Shown piece by piece: positions 1 to 46,001 of a stretch of DNA of 64,000 nt. The notes under the pieces are model-generated. The model saw nothing but the letters and a program-made list of their open reading frames with translations, had not been told where the DNA came from and ran no database searches. A program made the position numbers and the translations under genes. Origin of the DNA: a virus (taxonomy: Duplodnaviria; Caudoviricetes); IMG/VR virus record IMGVR_UViG_3300032328_000860, positions 128,001 through 192,000 of that record, one strand, 5' to 3'. The number at the start of each line of letters is the position of its first letter. Positions within the stretch are counted from its first letter, which is position 1.

Positions 1-35
1 GGCGAAAAGTGTTTGATTGTTATAAGGACTAAATA

Positions 36-323
36 ATGGAATGGTTTAACTCTCATAAGAATCCGCCAGAAGTTGGGCAGAAGATTTATTACTTTGGTCC
101 CAATATTGGTATAGGGATTGGTACTTATAAATATGAAGAACGAGCCATTAAAAGCACTAAGGGCAATAAAGATATAGAACTTTGTCCACATATTTTTGTG
201 AATACATATTGGGGCGTAGTAGATGCTTGTGATGCTCCATTCTGGTTGCCTTACAATGAGGAACGAGCAAAGAGTTGGTGTCCAATTATTCCAGAAGAAT
301 ATACTAAGGGGTTGTATGACTAA
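36..323 (+). CDS. hypothetical phage protein
   Basis: 95-aa ORF with AAGGA RBS. Confidence 0.6.
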   Translation: MEWFNSHKNPPEVGQKIYYFGPNIGIGIGTYKYEERAIKSTKGNKDIELCPHIFVNTYWGVVDACDAPFWLPYNEERAKSWCPIIPEEYTKGLYD

Positions 324-585
324 CGATAGAGAAAAGGCCATGATCTATATTCTTAGTTTTTTTAAGAGCAGAATGGCCGCTGCGAATAAGCATAATGTAG
401 ATAGGACTAAAGAACTTATTTCTACTCATCAGATTACGATGAATGAACTTGTGGACAAATATGTGGAGTTAGTTTATGAAAATTCTTAGTGATATTTGCC
501 AGTGTGGCGAAAATAATGATATGGCCTATAGGCTAGATGATCGTGGGGTGTGGTGGTATTGGTGTGGAACTTGTGGCTGGTGGCA

Positions 586-39018: not shown

Positions 39019-40263
39019 ATGAATCGTCGCCACTTCTTAAATCACTCTGCTGCAATTTCATCGTTGTCAGCATCTTCTTTATTCTTTACTGATTCTATCC
39101 TAGCAAATGCCAATGAGCTAAAAAAGAAGAATAAGAGTGCTATACTTTTGTGGATGAGCGGAGGCCCAAGCACTATTGATTTGTGGGATTTAAAGCCGGG
39201 TGCTGCTACTGGTGGAATTTTTAAGCCAATATCTACTAGTGCTGATGGAATTCAAATATGCGAACATCTGCCACTAATGGCACAACAAATGCACCACATG
39301 AATATTGTTCGCTCAATGAGTACCAGAGAAGCAGACCATACCAGAGGTCGCTACTATATGCACACAGGATATGTCCCTAATCCTAATATTGAACATCCTA
39401 GTTATGGATCAGTAATTTCTCATGAATTAATGTCCAGTATACCACAGATTGATATTCCTCCGTTTGTTAGTATTGGAGGAGCTAGTATTGGTGCTGGATT
39501 TTTAGGAACATCTTATTCTCCATTCGTAGTTAATTCTAATGGAACTGTTCGTGATCTTACTATGGATATAGATCAATCTAGATTAGATCAAAGACTTCGT
39601 ATGCTTAAAACTATTGAGGATAAATTTGTTAATGAAAAACGTGGAGATTATGCTTCTGACCACTCTAAGCTATTGACTAAAACAGTTAAGCTAATGACCA
39701 GTCTTCAGATGGATGTATTAAAAGTATCTAAAGAACCAAAAGAAGTTCAAGAAAGATATGGCAATACAGGATTTGGTAAAGGTTGTTTAATGGCACGAAG
39801 ATTAGTAGAGATGGGTATTCCATTTATTGAGGTTGATCTTGGTGGCTGGGATAATCATACTGATATTTTTAAGACTCTACAAGATCAAAAGTTGCCAGAA
39901 TTAGATAAAGCTATGAGTGCTTTGATTAGTGATCTAAATGATAGAGGTCTACTACAAGATACTGCTATTATTTGTATGGGAGAATTTGGACGAACCCCAA
40001 ATATCAATAGTAATGGTGGACGAGATCATTGGGCTAAAAGTTGGAGTGTTGTTGTTGGTGGAGCAGGATTTAATGGTGGCACAATTATCGGAGAAACCAG
40101 TAATGATGGTAAGGAAGTAATTACTGAACCATATACGTCACAGGACTTGATGGCGAGTGTTCTTAAATCACTAGGAATCTCATTAGAAACAAACTTTACT
40201 GCCAAAAATGGACGACCAATGAGAATTGCTAATAGTGGCAAACTTATTAAAGAACTATTTTAA
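39019..40263 (+). CDS. DUF1501-family protein with Tat signal
   Basis: MNRRHFL; WMSGGPSTIDLWDLKP; CLMARRLVE.G; WDNH; GEFGRTP; GRDHW. Confidence 0.92.
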   Translation: MNRRHFLNHSAAISSLSASSLFFTDSILANANELKKKNKSAILLWMSGGPSTIDLWDLKPGAATGGIFKPISTSADGIQICEHLPLMAQQMHHMNIVRSMSTREADHTRGRYYMHTGYVPNPNIEHPSYGSVISHELMSSIPQIDIPPFVSIGGASIGAGFLGTSYSPFVVNSNGTVRDLTMDIDQSRLDQRLRMLKTIEDKFVNEKRGDYASDHSKLLTKTVKLMTSLQMDVLKVSKEPKEVQERYGNTGFGKGCLMARRLVEMGIPFIEVDLGGWDNHTDIFKTLQDQKLPELDKAMSALISDLNDRGLLQDTAIICMGEFGRTPNINSNGGRDHWAKSWSVVVGGAGFNGGTIIGETSNDGKEVITEPYTSQDLMASVLKSLGISLETNFTAKNGRPMRIANSGKLIKELF

Positions 40264-40655
40264 TGTCTAGAAAAATTTGTACTTATTGTGAAAAACGTAA
40301 AAACTTAGCAAGTTTTCCCAAGCATAGTATGTACAAAGATAATCTTGATAGCAGATGTAGAAAATGTGTCAAGAAACACTCCAAGATTAGAAGCAAGCTA
40401 CATAAAAAAGCACCACCAAAACCAGAAGTTTGTGAGTGTTGTGGAAAAATTCCATTTAAATGGTGTTTGGATCATGACCATAGTGATGATAGCTTTAGGG
40501 GATGGTTGTGTAGCAAATGTAATGAGGGTCTTGGTAAATTAGGAGATAATTTAGACGGTGTAATTAAAGCTGTTAACTATTTAATAATGACTAAAAATAG
40601 GAATCAGCAAAATGAATCTTTACAACAAATGGATTCAACACCTAAAAGAAAATAA
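40263..40655 (+). CDS. endonuclease VII-like protein
   Basis: CECCG..LDHDH..RGWLC..CN.GLG. Confidence 0.85.
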   Translation: MSRKICTYCEKRKNLASFPKHSMYKDNLDSRCRKCVKKHSKIRSKLHKKAPPKPEVCECCGKIPFKWCLDHDHSDDSFRGWLCSKCNEGLGKLGDNLDGVIKAVNYLIMTKNRNQQNESLQQMDSTPKRK

Positions 40656-41370: not shown

Positions 41371-41757
41371 ATGCTTACAATAAAAACCAAACTAGATAAA
41401 AGTTCTATAGCAGGCATAGGTTTATTTGCAGATCAAGATATATTAAAGGGTGAAGTTGTATGGAAAATGAATAGTCTTTCAGTATTAAAAATTACTCCAA
41501 ATGAGTATAATAATTTATCTCGAACAGAAAAAGACTTTATACAAGAAAAGGACTATTTCTGGGCAGATGAAGATGGTAACTATATGATTCCGATTGATGA
41601 TAGTAGATTTATTAATCATTCTTGCAATCCTAATATTATTGATTTAGATGACAATACTTGCGTGGCATCTAAAGATATTAAGAGAGAAGAAGAACTAACT
41701 ATAGACTATAAAACATTGGTTCCAAAAGAACAGTGGCAAAACTATTATCACGCATGA
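41371..41757 (+). CDS. SET-domain methyltransferase
   Basis: GIGLFA..DI.KG; RFINHSCNPN; EELTIDY. Confidence 0.92.
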   Translation: MLTIKTKLDKSSIAGIGLFADQDILKGEVVWKMNSLSVLKITPNEYNNLSRTEKDFIQEKDYFWADEDGNYMIPIDDSRFINHSCNPNIIDLDDNTCVASKDIKREEELTIDYKTLVPKEQWQNYYHA

Positions 41758-41848
41758 GACAAGTATTCAAGAAACGATACAGCATTGACGATACTTGACA
41801 TAGGACTTAGCGTATGGTATACTACGCTAAACACAGGAGACTATTTAG

Positions 41849-42676
41849 ATGACTCACGATTTTAATTATGTTTGGGATATGGTTCGTGATCTTAGGGCTA
41901 CGAGTAGCACTATTGACAAGCAAGGAATTATTCTAGACTATTGTGGACACAAAAGTTCCGCAGCATCTTTTACCAAGAAAATTCTTCTCTATACATATCA
42001 TCCTCTATGGCAGTATAATGTTACCAGTGATAATCTGAAAAAAAAGAATTATCTTGTAGCAAGAAAGAACGAGTACAACAATTTTTTTGATTTGCTTGAC
42101 GCTCTAAAGAGTCGTAAAATTACTGGGCATGACGCTATCGCTGCGGTCAATAGTTTTATTGAACATAATGACGAATACGAAGAACTTATCCATTGCATTA
42201 TTGACAAGGATTTGAAAACCCGTGCTGGTGACAAGATTATTAACAAGGCTATTCCTGACCATATTCCAGAATTTAGTGTTGCTTTGGCAGATAAGTACGA
42301 GCCTAAACTTGTAGATTGGAAGGATGAATGGTATGTTTCCCGAAAAATTGATGGTTGTGTTGATTATCATACTCTCGTAGAGTTTGATAATGGAGACATA
42401 CTAAGTATTGGTTTTGTTGTAGAGAATAAAATTAATGGAAATATAAAGTCTTACAACCATAAAACTGGTCAAATTGAGTACAAACCAATTCTAAATCATA
42501 TGCAAAATCTAGAAGATGTTTCTGAAAAGTCCTCAACACAATGGTATGAAATTGTATTAGAAAATGGTCAAAGTTTAAAAATTACAGGAAATGATACTGT
42601 TTATCTACCGGAATTGAAATGTTATCGTAGAGTTGATGAACTTAATGGTGATGAAAAAATTCTATTTCACAAGTAA
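41849..42676 (+). CDS. ATP-dependent DNA ligase N-terminal part fused to split-intein N-fragment (42356-42673)
   Basis: ends ligase at SRKIDG, then intein block A CVDYHTLV and block B LKITGND. Confidence 0.92.
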   Translation: MTHDFNYVWDMVRDLRATSSTIDKQGIILDYCGHKSSAASFTKKILLYTYHPLWQYNVTSDNLKKKNYLVARKNEYNNFFDLLDALKSRKITGHDAIAAVNSFIEHNDEYEELIHCIIDKDLKTRAGDKIINKAIPDHIPEFSVALADKYEPKLVDWKDEWYVSRKIDGCVDYHTLVEFDNGDILSIGFVVENKINGNIKSYNHKTGQIEYKPILNHMQNLEDVSEKSSTQWYEIVLENGQSLKITGNDTVYLPELKCYRRVDELNGDEKILFHK

Positions 42677-42731
42677 TGTCCATCAAATTTTCTGCTTATT
42701 GGTGTAATCTATACCAGATAAGGAGATTATT

Positions 42732-43643
42732 ATGAAATGTAAATATTGTAACAAATTAGGATTTAAAGAATTTAAAAACTTATACGGACATCAAGCAAGG
42801 TGTGACAAATATATAGATTATATTTCTAAATATAGAAATAATATACTTACTAAAAAATATCTAAATTTAAATATTACTAAATTAAATAAACCGTGTTATC
42901 AATTAGAATTAGAATTAAACGATCCGCAGATTAAAACCAAACATATTATTGCTAGATGTAAGGAACTTGGAATAAAAACTCAAACCCTAAAAGAAGCAGC
43001 AAATAATAATAAAACAAAAAAGAAACGAGAAGAATTTAATCTTAAAAAATATGGCTATAAAAATAATTTTCAATCTAAAACAACAAAACAAACACTAAAA
43101 AGAAAATATGGCAAAAATATTACTAATGTTTTTCAATTAGACGAAGTGAAGCAAAAGAGTAAAAAGACATTACGAGATAGGTACGGTATTAGTAATCCTG
43201 TCAATCATCCAAATTTTAGAAGAAATGTTGGTAATATATCTTGGCAACACAAATCTATAGAAACAATTTTAGATAAATATAATATTAAATATGATAGCGA
43301 AAATAAAAATGGGATAGATTTTACTAAATACAACAAAAATTTAAAAAGAATTTATAATCCTAGACCAGATATTATCTTGCATGATTATAAAATAATTATA
43401 GAAATTTATGGAGATTATTATCATGCTAATCCTAAAAAATATAAACCGAATGATGTGCTGGTTACATGGGCTGGAGAAATAAAAGCAAAAGATATATGGA
43501 GTAAAGACAAAGCAAGAGTGCGTCACTTGCAAAGTTTTGGCTACAAGGTATACTGTATCTGGGGATCAGAGATAAGAACCAATAAGAATAAAATAGAGAA
43601 AAAAATATGCAAACTGTTAAAATTAAAAGTATTACAAAAATAG
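42732..43643 (+). CDS. free-standing Vsr/DUF559-like (PD-(D/E)xK) homing endonuclease
   Basis: PDII..IIEIYGDYYH..D..R...L...GY.V..IW. Confidence 0.85.
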   Translation: MKCKYCNKLGFKEFKNLYGHQARCDKYIDYISKYRNNILTKKYLNLNITKLNKPCYQLELELNDPQIKTKHIIARCKELGIKTQTLKEAANNNKTKKKREEFNLKKYGYKNNFQSKTTKQTLKRKYGKNITNVFQLDEVKQKSKKTLRDRYGISNPVNHPNFRRNVGNISWQHKSIETILDKYNIKYDSENKNGIDFTKYNKNLKRIYNPRPDIILHDYKIIIEIYGDYYHANPKKYKPNDVLVTWAGEIKAKDIWSKDKARVRHLQSFGYKVYCIWGSEIRTNKNKIEKKICKLLKLKVLQK

Positions 43644-44524
43644 ATAGTAGGGATAAATACGAACTAGAAGTTGCAGATAATGCTAATTTTTTTGCTAATG
43701 GTATACTCAAACATAATTGTAGATGTATTGGTATTGTTGATAGTAATGGTGATACTACCTTCTATTCCCGCACGGGAAAAGAGTTTGATACTCTTGGCAT
43801 CGTTAGGGATGGTATTAAGGCTCTTAACATTACTGATGTAGTATTTGATGGCGAACTTTGTCTCGTAGATGATGAAGGTAATGAGGATTTTCAAGGAGTA
43901 ATGAAACAACTCAAGAAGAAGGATCACACCATCCCTAATCCATCTTATAAAATTTTTGATATGATTTCTCACGACGAATTTTATAGTAAGAAGGGTGATA
44001 AAAATAAAACTTATACCCATCGCTATAATAACCTACGAGAAGTTATGAAAAATAACTCTTGTGTTTGTCTTAGTGTTCTTGGTCAAGAATTGATTAAAGA
44101 TGATGACCATTTTGCTGAGTGGACGGGGAAAGCCAAGGAATATGGTTGGGAGGGATTGATGCTTCGTGCTAACGAGCCATATAAAGGCAAGCGATCCAAA
44201 GACCTCCTCAAGTTTAAAAGTTTTTGCGATGACGAATATGAAGTTGTAGACGTTGAAATGGGGCCATTTAGATATGTTAAAGATGGTGCAGAATGTGAGG
44301 AGACTATGCTCTCCTGTGTTATGATTAACCATAAAGGATATACTGTTAGGGTTGGTAGTGGTTTCGCTATTGACCAGAGACAAGAATTCTTTCAGAATCC
44401 TAAGAAAATTCTTGGAAAGATTATTCAAGTACAGTATTTTGAAGAGACAAAGAATCAAGAGGGGAAATTAAGTCTTCGTTTTCCGACCTTTAAGTATCTC
44501 TATGGAAAAACAAGAGACATTTAA
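43607..44524 (+). CDS. split-intein C-fragment (43607-43717) fused to DNA ligase C-terminal part
   Basis: YELEVADNANFFANGILKHN/C; then FDGE, IFD, EGLMLR, LLKFK, VGSG, LRFP ligase motifs. Confidence 0.92.
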   Translation: MQTVKIKSITKIDSRDKYELEVADNANFFANGILKHNCRCIGIVDSNGDTTFYSRTGKEFDTLGIVRDGIKALNITDVVFDGELCLVDDEGNEDFQGVMKQLKKKDHTIPNPSYKIFDMISHDEFYSKKGDKNKTYTHRYNNLREVMKNNSCVCLSVLGQELIKDDDHFAEWTGKAKEYGWEGLMLRANEPYKGKRSKDLLKFKSFCDDEYEVVDVEMGPFRYVKDGAECEETMLSCVMINHKGYTVRVGSGFAIDQRQEFFQNPKKILGKIIQVQYFEETKNQEGKLSLRFPTFKYLYGKTRDI

Positions 44525-45159
44525 TCATTTTTCCAATCTAATCTCGCACCCTTTTCTCTATTTTTACTAGATTCTAGAGGTTGAAGATTAGAGTAATGGC
44601 ATAATTCTCTGAGCTTTTTCTGATCTTTGGCAGAGGCTAGTGGTATTATGTGGTCTATCTCCCAGTAAGTCCCATGATTATTCCAAGACATTTTTTCGGT
44701 GAATTGATTTTCTAAATGTTTACGAACTTCTTCAATAGAGCAACCTAAAATATCTCTGCTTTTTTCTGTTTTTCTTATAAATGCTTTACTTATTCTAGAT
44801 CTTAATATATGTTTTAATTTATACAAAGTATCATTTTTCATTCTGTATTGATGTATCTCACTCATTCTTTTTTTTCTTTCTGGTCTTTGACGATATTCTA
44901 TACTTTTTTTGAGTAATTTTGTTTTATTTTTACGATAATATTTCTGCCCCTCCTCTTTTAATTTTTCTGGATAATCTTGTCTCCTTTGTTTAACTCTTTC
45001 TTTTATGTCATCACTATTTTTTTTGTATCTTTTTTGATCTTTAGATTTCTGACATATTTTACAGTATGGATGAAGTCCGTACTTATGGTTTTTACTTTTA
45101 TGAAAATTTTTATTATTAGCAATTTTATATTTACCACATGTACTACATTGTTTTGTCAT
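44521..45159 (-). CDS. HNH-type homing endonuclease
   Basis: WEIDHIIPL..LCHYSNLQPL..N. Confidence 0.9.
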   Translation of the reverse strand: MTKQCSTCGKYKIANNKNFHKSKNHKYGLHPYCKICQKSKDQKRYKKNSDDIKERVKQRRQDYPEKLKEEGQKYYRKNKTKLLKKSIEYRQRPERKKRMSEIHQYRMKNDTLYKLKHILRSRISKAFIRKTEKSRDILGCSIEEVRKHLENQFTEKMSWNNHGTYWEIDHIIPLASAKDQKKLRELCHYSNLQPLESSKNREKGARLDWKND

Positions 45160-45302
45160 ATTAACCCCTCTTTTGATAGACCATATTATGTAATACACCA
45201 AAAAGTTTTAGATTCCTCACACTAAAGAAACGACATTTGACAAGACGATACCAGTAGTGTAGAATTGTAGCATACCTGTTGGAAACAAACATTGGAGAAG
45301 AT

Positions 45303-46001
45303 ATGAGCGGAACAATTGTTGAGAAAAAGCCCATTGTTATGAGTACGAGCAAGGCTGACGAGTTTTTTAAAAACTTTCCCAAGGATAAAGTTGTTGCCTA
45401 TAAAGACTATTGGGAAACTGTTCGCCCAAAGAATAATGATGATATTTTTAGGCGTTATCTTTTTGCTTTCATGAGTGTCCATACTACATGGGAAAGTAAT
45501 GTTAAGGGTTATAATGCTGTTAAAAACTTCGATGAATGGATTGATGACGAAACATCACTTCTTGAAAAAATCAAAAACAGTGGAGTCGGTCTTCATAATA
45601 ATCGTACAGAATATATTTGGAATTTTAAGGATAAGTTTTGGGCCAATCCTAAAGATTATATTATAACCACTAAGAAATATCATGTTAAGAAACGTGATAG
45701 CATCATAAATAAAATTCGCGGATTAGGAGCAGCGAAAATCTCATTCAGTTGCGAGATGCAGAATCCTAATGAATGTAGAGTAGTGTGTTTGGACGTTCAT
45801 TTGCTTAGACTTTATGGTTGCGAGAATCTAAAATATAACAAAAGCCCAAAGGGCATGGCTATGTACAAAAATATCGAAAGGCATTGGAGTATTAACTGCG
45901 GTCGAACAAATGTGCCTTGTTATATCATGAGGTCTTTGTATTGGAATACTTTACAGAATCAAGAGAATTGTCGCTATTGGAGTCATTGTTTAGAATCATA
46001 A
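45303..46001 (+). CDS. HhH-GPD N-glycosylase/AP lyase (8-oxoguanine glycosylase-like)
   Basis: HhH IRGLGAAK and catalytic LDVH. Confidence 0.8.
   Translation: MSGTIVEKKPIVMSTSKADEFFKNFPKDKVVAYKDYWETVRPKNNDDIFRRYLFAFMSVHTTWESNVKGYNAVKNFDEWIDDETSLLEKIKNSGVGLHNNRTEYIWNFKDKFWANPKDYIITTKKYHVKKRDSIINKIRGLGAAKISFSCEMQNPNECRVVCLDVHLLRLYGCENLKYNKSPKGMAMYKNIERHWSINCGRTNVPCYIMRSLYWNTLQNQENCRYWSHCLES

Follow-up and report, generated by a model that had tools for sequence, protein, structure and literature searches.

Fractured genes, in which each part of a host gene carries one half of a split intein and a free-standing endonuclease gene lies between them, were described by Dassa, London, Stoddard, Schueler-Furman and Pietrokovski (2009; PMC2677866). 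Their examples comprise gp41-1 to gp41-8, NrdJ-1, IMPDH-1, NrdA, DnaE and terminase, together with one DNA ligase locus from Lake Gatun, which is Felix 01-like and is not among the five complete loci of that report. In the same collection a hairpin was noted in 15 of 16 endonuclease 5′ regions, along with a late-promoter box, and the endonuclease gene overlaps the C-terminal intein coding region by 6-69 bp in 15 loci (PMC2677866). A 2025 preprint still names this study as the sole source on Vsr-like endonucleases accompanying split inteins. The homing endonuclease I-Bth0305I and the EDxHD (Vsr-like) family were characterized by Taylor et al. (2011; PMC3239194; PDB 3r3p). Here we analyse a locus of the fractured type, a DNA ligase gene at positions 41849-44524 of a 64,000-nt stretch (termed the window, to which all coordinates refer) of the record of an uncultured Caudoviricetes phage, IMGVR_UViG_3300032328_000860.

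The locus is filled by three open reading frames (ORFs) on the plus strand, the first and last of which (ORF1 and ORF3) have a common frame. ORF1 joins the N-terminal portion of the ligase (the N-extein) to an N-terminal intein half (IntN), ORF2 is the endonuclease gene, and ORF3 begins with the C-terminal intein half (IntC) and continues with the rest of the ligase (the C-extein). The same layout is found again on independent metagenome contigs, among them those of loci L016, L060, L067, L084 and L088. From sequence comparison and structure modelling we consider it very probable that this is a trans-splicing fractured gene of the kind reported in 2009, in which a mobile cassette occupies motif I of the sole ligase of the phage. 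This reading is supported because the ligase profile matches are contiguous, both halves pass intein hidden Markov models (HMMs), the predicted fold is that of a HINT domain, the +1 residue follows an Ala/Cys pattern, the ORFs are under purifying selection, and no other ligase is available in the genome.

The layout has been known since 2009, the ligase case included, and the window locus is a well-supported new complete example of it. The original prediction for this region had already called the architecture an established one, and was right more strongly than it stated, as a DNA ligase stands among the published fractured genes (PMC2677866). The known picture of fractured genes is unchanged and a specialist would not be surprised; what the locus provides is a clean and complete case of a selfish element that has settled in an important replication enzyme, at the single motif conserved most strongly.

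The ligase gene is broken within motif I

The two ligase parts can be placed side by side on a single profile. ORF1 matches positions 97-250 of the PHROG ligase profile phrog_114 (E 1.3e-24) and ORF3 matches positions 250-496 (E 7.3e-52), contiguous with the ORF1 match at the break. As the matches meet at position 250, nothing of the ligase has been lost there. In Pfam, ORF3 covers profile positions 37-204 of the 204 in PF01068 (E 8e-13) and also matches the OB domain model PF14743 (E 2.2e-9). The N-extein resembles the helical DNA-binding domain of T4 DNA ligase (6dt1, E 8e-4), and the C-extein resembles the Prochlorococcus ligase 6rau from residue 172 of that protein onwards (E 7e-17). The hallmarks of an ATP-dependent DNA ligase are present, namely motif I (KxDGxR) with its catalytic Lys, the adenylation domain and the OB domain.

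When joined, the exteins form a protein of 437 aa in which motif I reads K166-I-D-G-C-R, in agreement with the original prediction that splicing would rebuild KIDG-CRC in a ligase of ~437 aa. Its account of the parts was equally accurate: the coordinates it stated for the locus hold, the 169-aa ligase fragment ending SRKIDG and the 106-aa, Cys-led IntN have the lengths it gave, and the 37-aa IntC ends KHN and is followed by Cys and the rest of the ligase as it described. A second ATP- or NAD-dependent ligase was not found in the phage genome (223,437 bp, CheckV completeness 100%). The gene is the only DNA ligase of the phage, and it is cut within motif I (KxDG/xR, the slash marking the break here and below).

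For comparison with uninterrupted alleles we used the best 80 ligase loci in IMG/VR. The ligase is uninterrupted in 77 of these 80 closest loci. In the junction tally the +1 residue is Ala in 70 uninterrupted alleles (KIDG-A-RC), whereas it is Cys in all four of the fractured alleles compared, which are those of the window, L016, L060 and L067. The intein-less allele of L004 reads AAAATTGACGGT up to the homing junction and GCTAGATGTATT beyond it, and the insert in the fractured alleles measures 1362-1363 nt. From the intein-less sister alleles one can read both where the homing site lies and that invasion goes with a change of Ala to Cys. All three ORFs are intact in the four fractured alleles, and dN/dS, calculated among alleles whose synonymous sites are saturated (dS >1), is 0.03-0.15 for the N-extein and 0.03-0.27 for the exteins overall.

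The intein halves are predicted to form one HINT domain

An intein HMM search had been proposed with the original prediction, and in it both halves score above the curated NCBIfam cut-offs: IntN reaches 25.0 against a cut-off of 24.5 for TIGR01445 (intein N-terminal), and IntC reaches 21.3 against 15.6 for TIGR01443 (intein C-terminal). Each half alone falls under the cut-off of PF14890 (16 and 24.4 bits against 35.8), as is expected because the halves are fragments. Searches of the PDB with single intein-half sequences gave weak matches (gp41-1, E 0.2), and fold comparison was therefore used for the intein halves. Since ORF1 and ORF3 share a frame, a pseudo-fusion could be produced by reading through positions 42341-43732 in frame with stops as Gly, which yields IntN, 311 junk residues and IntC. 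The AlphaFold2 input alignment contained 17 in-frame read-throughs and 44 separate halves of relatives, and was checked by eye.

In the resulting model, residues 1-111 and 420-464 have pLDDT values of 82-98 (82-98 for IntN and 91-94 for IntC), while the artificial linker remains below 50. Using VIA-align, both halves superpose on the Ssp DnaB mini-intein (6fre; Z 22.0, rmsd 1.9 Å, 148 aa). The model also aligns with the NrdJ-1 split-intein fusion (8ubs; Z 21.7, 144/150 aa) and with gp41-1 (Z 18.4, 127/128 aa; superposed model range 1..464). The predicted fold is clear-cut, and IntN and IntC would together form one HINT domain. The original prediction had named a failure of the fragments to adopt this fold as one outcome that would speak against it, and they model into a single HINT domain.

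Apart from the block B His, the residues expected to carry out splicing are strongly conserved. Cys1, which follows KIDG, and the Thr of block B are invariant in 185 of 185 analysable members of the wider intein family considered below, a set that includes closer homologues; counts over 144 representatives refer to 50%-identity clusters. Block G contains the penultimate His, the terminal Asn and the +1 Cys nucleophile, and no checked allele of the clade departs from the HN/C end formed by IntC and the +1 Cys, even where its codons differ synonymously. For IntN, dN/dS across the four fractured alleles is 0.10-0.15, again with saturated synonymous sites, and IntC is 86-100% identical among them.

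An additional observation concerns the 3′ portion of IntC. In codons 13-37 (43643-43717) dS among the four fractured alleles is 0.16-0.33, compared with values >1 in IntN, the endonuclease gene and the exteins. This low dS extends past the stretch that overlaps the endonuclease gene, over only 25 codons, and could reflect nucleotide-level constraint or gene conversion.

A non-canonical block B

Block B of the window intein reads T-G-N-D. The Thr of the TxxH motif is present and the His position is occupied by Asp, which is why we class the intein as non-canonical in block B. The alignment is unambiguous, with relatives carrying TGNH, TGND or TGNN in the same column, and the Asp codon is GAT or GAC across alleles. 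Over the 144 representatives the position is filled by His in 111, Asp in 16, Asn in 15, Glu in one and Gln in one. Inteins without the block B His form a tiny minority among inteins, in which compensation is known to come from other residues or from a bulky residue at -1 (PMC6333167). As the -1 residue is Gly, compensation of the latter kind (PMC6333167) is unavailable to the window intein. Inspection of the residues after Cys1 and of the block F position revealed no clear pattern of a residue that co-varies with the block B Asp or Asn. Having a conserved Asp at the block B His position and no bulky residue at -1, this intein is a natural test case for alternative ways of promoting the N-S acyl shift.

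A sister clade found in KxHG-type RNA-ligase-like hosts has Asn at the same position (T-G-N-N), mostly with Thr at +1. Its members, P0063, P0071 and P0101 and loci L108, L111, L125 and L141, are a second His-less variant of the family.

The endonuclease gene and its 5′ region

ORF2 scores 30.9 bits against a Pfam cut-off of 27 for DUF7487 and 20.6 bits, exactly at the cut-off, for DUF559, and its 17.3 bits against the Vsr model lie under the cut-off of 27. A profile built from 21 ORF2 homologues matches the catalytic domain of I-Bth0305I (3r3p, E 2.9e-4) and Vsr (1cw0, E 3.2e-4). In the structural model, which has a mean pLDDT of 85, the C-terminal domain superposes on 1cw0 (Z 11.9, 111 aa) and on 3r3p (Z 10.2, 95/98 aa). 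The N-terminal region is helical in the model and weakly resembles small DNA-binding domains; NUMOD motifs were not demonstrated in this part.

Residues D213, E224, H231 and D241 of ORF2 are invariant, and 30 of 32 sequences also retain D259. D213, H231 and D259 correspond in the alignment to D51, H69 and D97 of Vsr. With respect to the composite motif E-D-x-H-D, which in Vsr comprises E25, D51, the H64 position, H69 and D97, the first Glu is not conserved in the ORF2 subfamily, where His is aligned. The dN/dS of ORF2 among the four fractured alleles is 0.07-0.27. Because profile, fold, invariant residues and dN/dS agree, we assign ORF2, by comparison and modelling, to the Vsr-like/EDxHD homing endonuclease lineage. 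The original prediction of a Vsr/DUF559-like middle gene with its own ribosome binding site is upheld by profile and fold alike, and by an AAGGAG sequence 6 nt before the ATG.

The spacer upstream of ORF2 is predicted to fold into a hairpin of -16.9 kcal/mol (z -3.1), and none of 200 shuffled sequences was as stable. Hairpins of differing sequence occupy the same place in L016, L060 and L067 (z -1.6 to -4.35). In most relatives (L093, L095, L100, L106, L109, L117, L127 and L133) a T4-type late-promoter-like box, (T/C)ATAAATA, is located in the hairpin loop region. At the other end of the gene, the overlap between ORF2 and IntC is 28-37 nt in all four fractured alleles.

Distribution among ligase relatives

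On a tree of the exteins the intein-bearing alleles are scattered, and well-supported branches force at least four gains or losses. The closest extein relatives of the window, L004 and L045, are intein-less. The intein and endonuclease proteins are 26-34% diverged among the four fractured alleles. The deposited phage records of the collection searched included none with the window intein, protein matches stopping at the N-extein with 25-33% identity, and a DNA search of deposited phages gave only 75-nt endonuclease-like matches in Lak phages.

Two features of the extein tree deserve separate mention. The uninterrupted ligases of L027 and L028 (junctions near 1980 and 6066) read KLDG-C-RL and have Cys at +1 without an intein; they are sister to the fractured L067 on the tree (SH-aLRT 91). 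Judged by sequence, this Cys may be the scar of a precise intein loss or may mark an allele pre-adapted for invasion. The terminal branches of the L016, L060 and L067 exteins are long (0.47-0.65 against a median of 0.11), with the window's own at 0.11, and co-conversion from divergent donors or relaxed constraint are possible causes.

Proposed mechanism and alternative explanations

The cassette consists of the N-intein, the hairpin spacer, the Vsr-like (EDxHD-type) homing endonuclease gene and the C-intein. In the mechanism that we propose, the three ORFs would be co-transcribed, with the hairpin limiting translation of the endonuclease, and the ligase halves of 275 and 305 aa would be translated separately. 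Docking of the 106-aa and 37-aa intein fragments would then create one HINT domain, in which Cys1, the terminal Asn and the +1 Cys would perform protein trans-splicing to give the 437-aa ligase with K-I-D-G-C-R restored. The endonuclease is expected to cut intein-less ligase alleles of co-infecting relatives near GACGGT/GCTAGA, and repair would copy the cassette in. Several observations weigh against parts of this proposal. In block B, Asp has taken the place of the His by which the N-S acyl shift is normally promoted, with Gly at -1, and the block F position, usually His, is Ala here. The fold test is a prediction only, made with an artificial linker obtained by read-through. In addition, the window spacer is without a clear TATAAATA late-promoter box such as many relatives carry, the copy in the window having diverged to GTAATCTATAC, and recombination may blur the extein tree.

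The changes at blocks B and F, together with a Gly at -1 that gives no steric compensation, would suit intein halves that no longer splice and merely serve as a docking pair holding the ligase fragments together non-covalently, like Aeh1 NrdA. We regard this as improbable because every other splicing residue is conserved: docking by itself has no need of Cys1, of the Thr in block B, of the terminal His-Asn or of the +1 Cys, yet all are retained. The occurrence of Ala at +1 in the 70 intein-less alleles against Cys in every fractured one speaks in the same direction, as does the position of the break three residues past the catalytic Lys, inside the adenylation domain, which is a poor place for an enzyme left unlinked. 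Asp and Asn variants at the block B position, moreover, make up 23% of an otherwise conserved family. It is harder still to believe that insertion of the cassette inactivated the ligase and that the phage uses the ligase of its host. Ligase-deficient phages can sometimes use host LigA, and the long terminal branches of the L016, L060 and L067 exteins would be in keeping with a dying gene; against this, three intact ORFs persist in four alleles with saturated synonymous sites, extein dN/dS is as in a working gene, the window's own extein branch is ordinary, and dozens more split halves of the same lengths are present in public data. A pseudogene was rejected on the intact ORFs and the extein dN/dS of 0.03-0.27.

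A cassette that splices but is now immobile, its endonuclease being kept for some other reason or decaying while the whole is inherited vertically in the lineage, is unlikely without being far-fetched. The 26-34% divergence of the intein and endonuclease proteins means that no recent transfer is visible among the four alleles, and relatives in which the gap is short or the endonuclease ORF truncated (L089, L100, L107, L116, L118, L120, L134 and L139) indicate that the endonuclease can disappear with the split intein kept. On the other side, the endonuclease of the fractured alleles has a dN/dS of 0.07-0.27 and invariant catalytic residues, and the intein is patchily present among close ligase relatives. 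Homologous endonucleases also accompany homologous inteins in several ligase host genes, and past movement is therefore required. A trans-splicing fractured gene with a mobile cassette is accordingly the reading that we prefer. Two further explanations were rejected: chance ORFs in view of the contiguous ligase profile, the intein HMM and endonuclease matches and the recurrence of the layout, and an assembly artefact because many independent contigs share this layout.

A wider family of split inteins in ligases

An exhaustive HMMER search with IntN returned 483 clusters at E <= 1e-3; at the stricter threshold of E <= 1e-10 there were 168. In 142 of the 144 analysable representatives the intein is split, the protein ending with IntN. 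P0076 and P0093 are contiguous mini-inteins of the same family, located at the KLDG/C site of T7-like DNA ligases in proteins of 513 and 523 aa; they may preserve an ancestral state that precedes splitting, or may have been re-fused. Cys1 is preceded by Kx[DEN]G in 134 and by KxHG in 29 of the 185 analysable family members. The hosts include the T4-like ligase of the window, T7-like ligases, RNA ligases of the Rnl1 type (PF09511) and the PHA02142 type, and NAD-dependent ligases, the last at a TRG[DN]G site. When the NAD-ligase member P0110 was compared with phages, NAD-dependent ligases were matched, with no Felix 01 among the 15 matches listed.

IntC lies downstream in 54 of 60 IMG/VR family loci, with a gap of ~900-1000 nt in ~43. 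In the approximately three dozen loci with a full-length gap ORF of ~300 aa, this ORF is homologous to the window endonuclease; the remaining loci have short gaps or endonuclease remnants. Dozens of additional split halves, both N- and C-terminal, with matching lengths are found in public data. On sequence grounds, the large family of which the window intein is a member is split almost throughout and occupies motif I in DNA and RNA ligases, and the clade of the window intein has the block B Asp.

In some related loci both intein halves are still split, with only a truncated endonuclease ORF (85-181 aa) left or none at all (gaps of 90-400 nt); they include L100/L101, L120, L111 and L125. A truncated or absent endonuclease ORF with the split intein kept is also seen in L139/L140, L089, L107, L116, L118 and L134. 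From their sequences, these loci look like stages of endonuclease decay.

Combining these observations, we put forward tentatively, as somewhat less than an even prospect, that the window element is part of a very large uncatalogued family of split-intein and Vsr-like-endonuclease cassettes specialized on motif I (Kx[DHN]G followed by C, S or T) of covalent nucleotidyltransferases. The hosts between which such cassettes might have moved are ATP-dependent DNA ligases of the T4-like and T7-like kinds, two or more families of RNA ligases (Rnl1-type PF09511 and PHA02142-type) and, at a nearby site, NAD-dependent ligases, and about a quarter of the cassettes (those with block B Asp or Asn and Gly at -1) might splice by an undescribed compensating mechanism. 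In the open-access literature we found no split-intein family of motif-I ligases or RNA ligases beyond the report of Dassa et al. (2009), which is weak evidence of absence.

Coordinates and genome neighbourhood

The features of the locus are collected in Table 1. The promoter-like site upstream of the ligase N-half matches the consensus at 11 of 12 positions and is the top site of the region on the plus strand; the total number of promoter-like sites in the region shows no excess over the shuffle expectation.

Table 1. Features of the fractured ligase locus, in window coordinates.
Feature	Positions	Strand	Description
Promoter-like site, upstream of ligase N-half	41795-41823	+	TTGACA, 17 nt, TATACT, with TG; consensus match only
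ORF1	41849-42676	+	275 aa: 169-aa ligase N-extein and 106-aa IntN, then stop
Ligase N-extein	41849-42355	+	169 aa; helical DNA-binding domain and start of adenylation domain; ends SRKIDG, catalytic Lys166
N-intein (IntN)	42356-42676	+	106 aa and stop codon; Cys1 first
Block B, T-G-N-D	42584-42595	+	Asp at class 1 intein His position
Spacer RNA hairpin (predicted)	42683-42735	+	within 55-nt non-coding spacer; pairs AAGGAG (42720-42725) and part of start codon
ORF2, endonuclease	42732-43643	+	303 aa; AAGGAG 6 nt upstream of ATG
Endonuclease Vsr-like catalytic domain	43236-43625	+	residues ~169-298; preceded by N-terminal CxxC and helical repeat region (DUF7487)
ORF2 3′ end/IntC overlap	43607-43643	+	37 nt
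ORF3	43607-44524	+	305 aa: 37-aa IntC and 268-aa ligase C-extein
C-intein (IntC)	43607-43717	+	37 aa, ending NFFANGILKHN
Ligase C-extein	43718-44524	+	268 aa and stop; +1 Cys (CRC); remaining adenylation domain and OB domain

Upstream of the ligase are a full-length DUF1501 protein (39019-40263, E 4e-101), an Endonuclease VII-type ORF two genes before the ligase (40263-40655, plus strand; PF02945, E 1.7e-10) and a SET-domain protein (41371-41757; PF00856, E 2.3e-16). A 226-aa Cys-rich ORF on the minus strand (44521-45201) abuts the ligase stop codon and has no Pfam match, and it is followed by an Ogg-like HhH glycosylase (45279-46001; PF22175). The Endonuclease VII-type ORF and the Cys-rich ORF are further small, nuclease-like genes on either side of the fractured ligase, and the SET, DUF1501 and Ogg-like neighbours are an unusual phage gene set. 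The same phage carries a second, contiguous intein outside the window (G000:C1:5959-8022, equivalent to L001:1174-3237). This intein has a LAGLIDADG endonuclease domain and lies inside a 687-aa ORF (PF14890, 51.6 bits; PF14528).

Comparison with known systems

The naturally split DnaE inteins of Npu and Ssp are of class 1, like the window intein, and have Cys1, Cys+1 and a similar split point. The predicted window fold superposes on DnaE (4kl5) with Z 18.8 and an rmsd of 2.2 Å over 139 aa at an identity of ~22%. DnaE differs in keeping the block B TxxH. The two halves of DnaE are encoded at distant places in the genome, and no endonuclease gene separates them.

The closest counterparts are the fractured genes of Dassa et al. 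(2009), with which the window locus shares the order on one strand of host N-part with IntN, free-standing endonuclease gene, and IntC with host C-part. In both, the non-coding spacer is short (27-51 nt in the published loci and 55 nt in the window) and a hairpin covers the 5′ region of the endonuclease gene, whose 3′ end overlaps IntC (by 6-69 bp and 37 nt, respectively). Both also have a Vsr-like endonuclease, come from phages and involve a host gene of DNA metabolism. The intein halves are of similar size, IntN being 88-105 and IntC 33-54 aa there, compared with 106 and 37 here. The published ligase locus is set apart, by its description, in being incomplete and Felix 01-like with a 5′-3′ exonuclease gene downstream, whereas in the window both halves are complete, the ligase is T4-like, and an opposite-strand ORF and the Ogg-like glycosylase gene lie downstream. 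The split inteins of that study are said to carry the block B His, where the window intein has Asp. In fold alignments NrdJ-1 and gp41-1 are only 24-25% identical to the window intein. With fragments of 106 and 37 aa, Cys1 and Cys+1, and Gly at -1, the window intein is a candidate compact natural split intein, and because its identity to gp41-1 and NrdJ-1 is only ~25% it may be orthogonal to both.

ORF2 shares with I-Bth0305I and the EDxHD family a C-terminal domain of (for ORF2, predicted) Vsr fold, equivalents of the conserved Asp, His and Asp, and a separate N-terminal DNA-binding region, and the family has itself been linked to fractured genes (PMC3239194). I-Bth0305I differs in being intron-encoded, in recA, while ORF2 has an N-terminal part of CxxC and DUF7487 repeats and lacks conservation of the first Glu.

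In the Aeh1 nrdA/mobE system a phage gene of DNA metabolism is likewise split by a free-standing endonuclease gene, and a hairpin and a late promoter control translation of that gene (Gibb and Edgell); the fragments are reported to assemble non-covalently, without splicing, and no intein is present (PMC3045599). The window locus, in contrast, has intact intein halves with conserved splicing residues flanking the endonuclease gene. Inteins of the Tko CDC21-1 type are class 1-like and without the block B His, and splice via a compensating residue; they are contiguous and archaeal, with a bulky Leu at -1 (PMC6333167). The window intein, by comparison, is split, has Gly at -1, and carries Asp at the His position, which is Asn in its sister clade.

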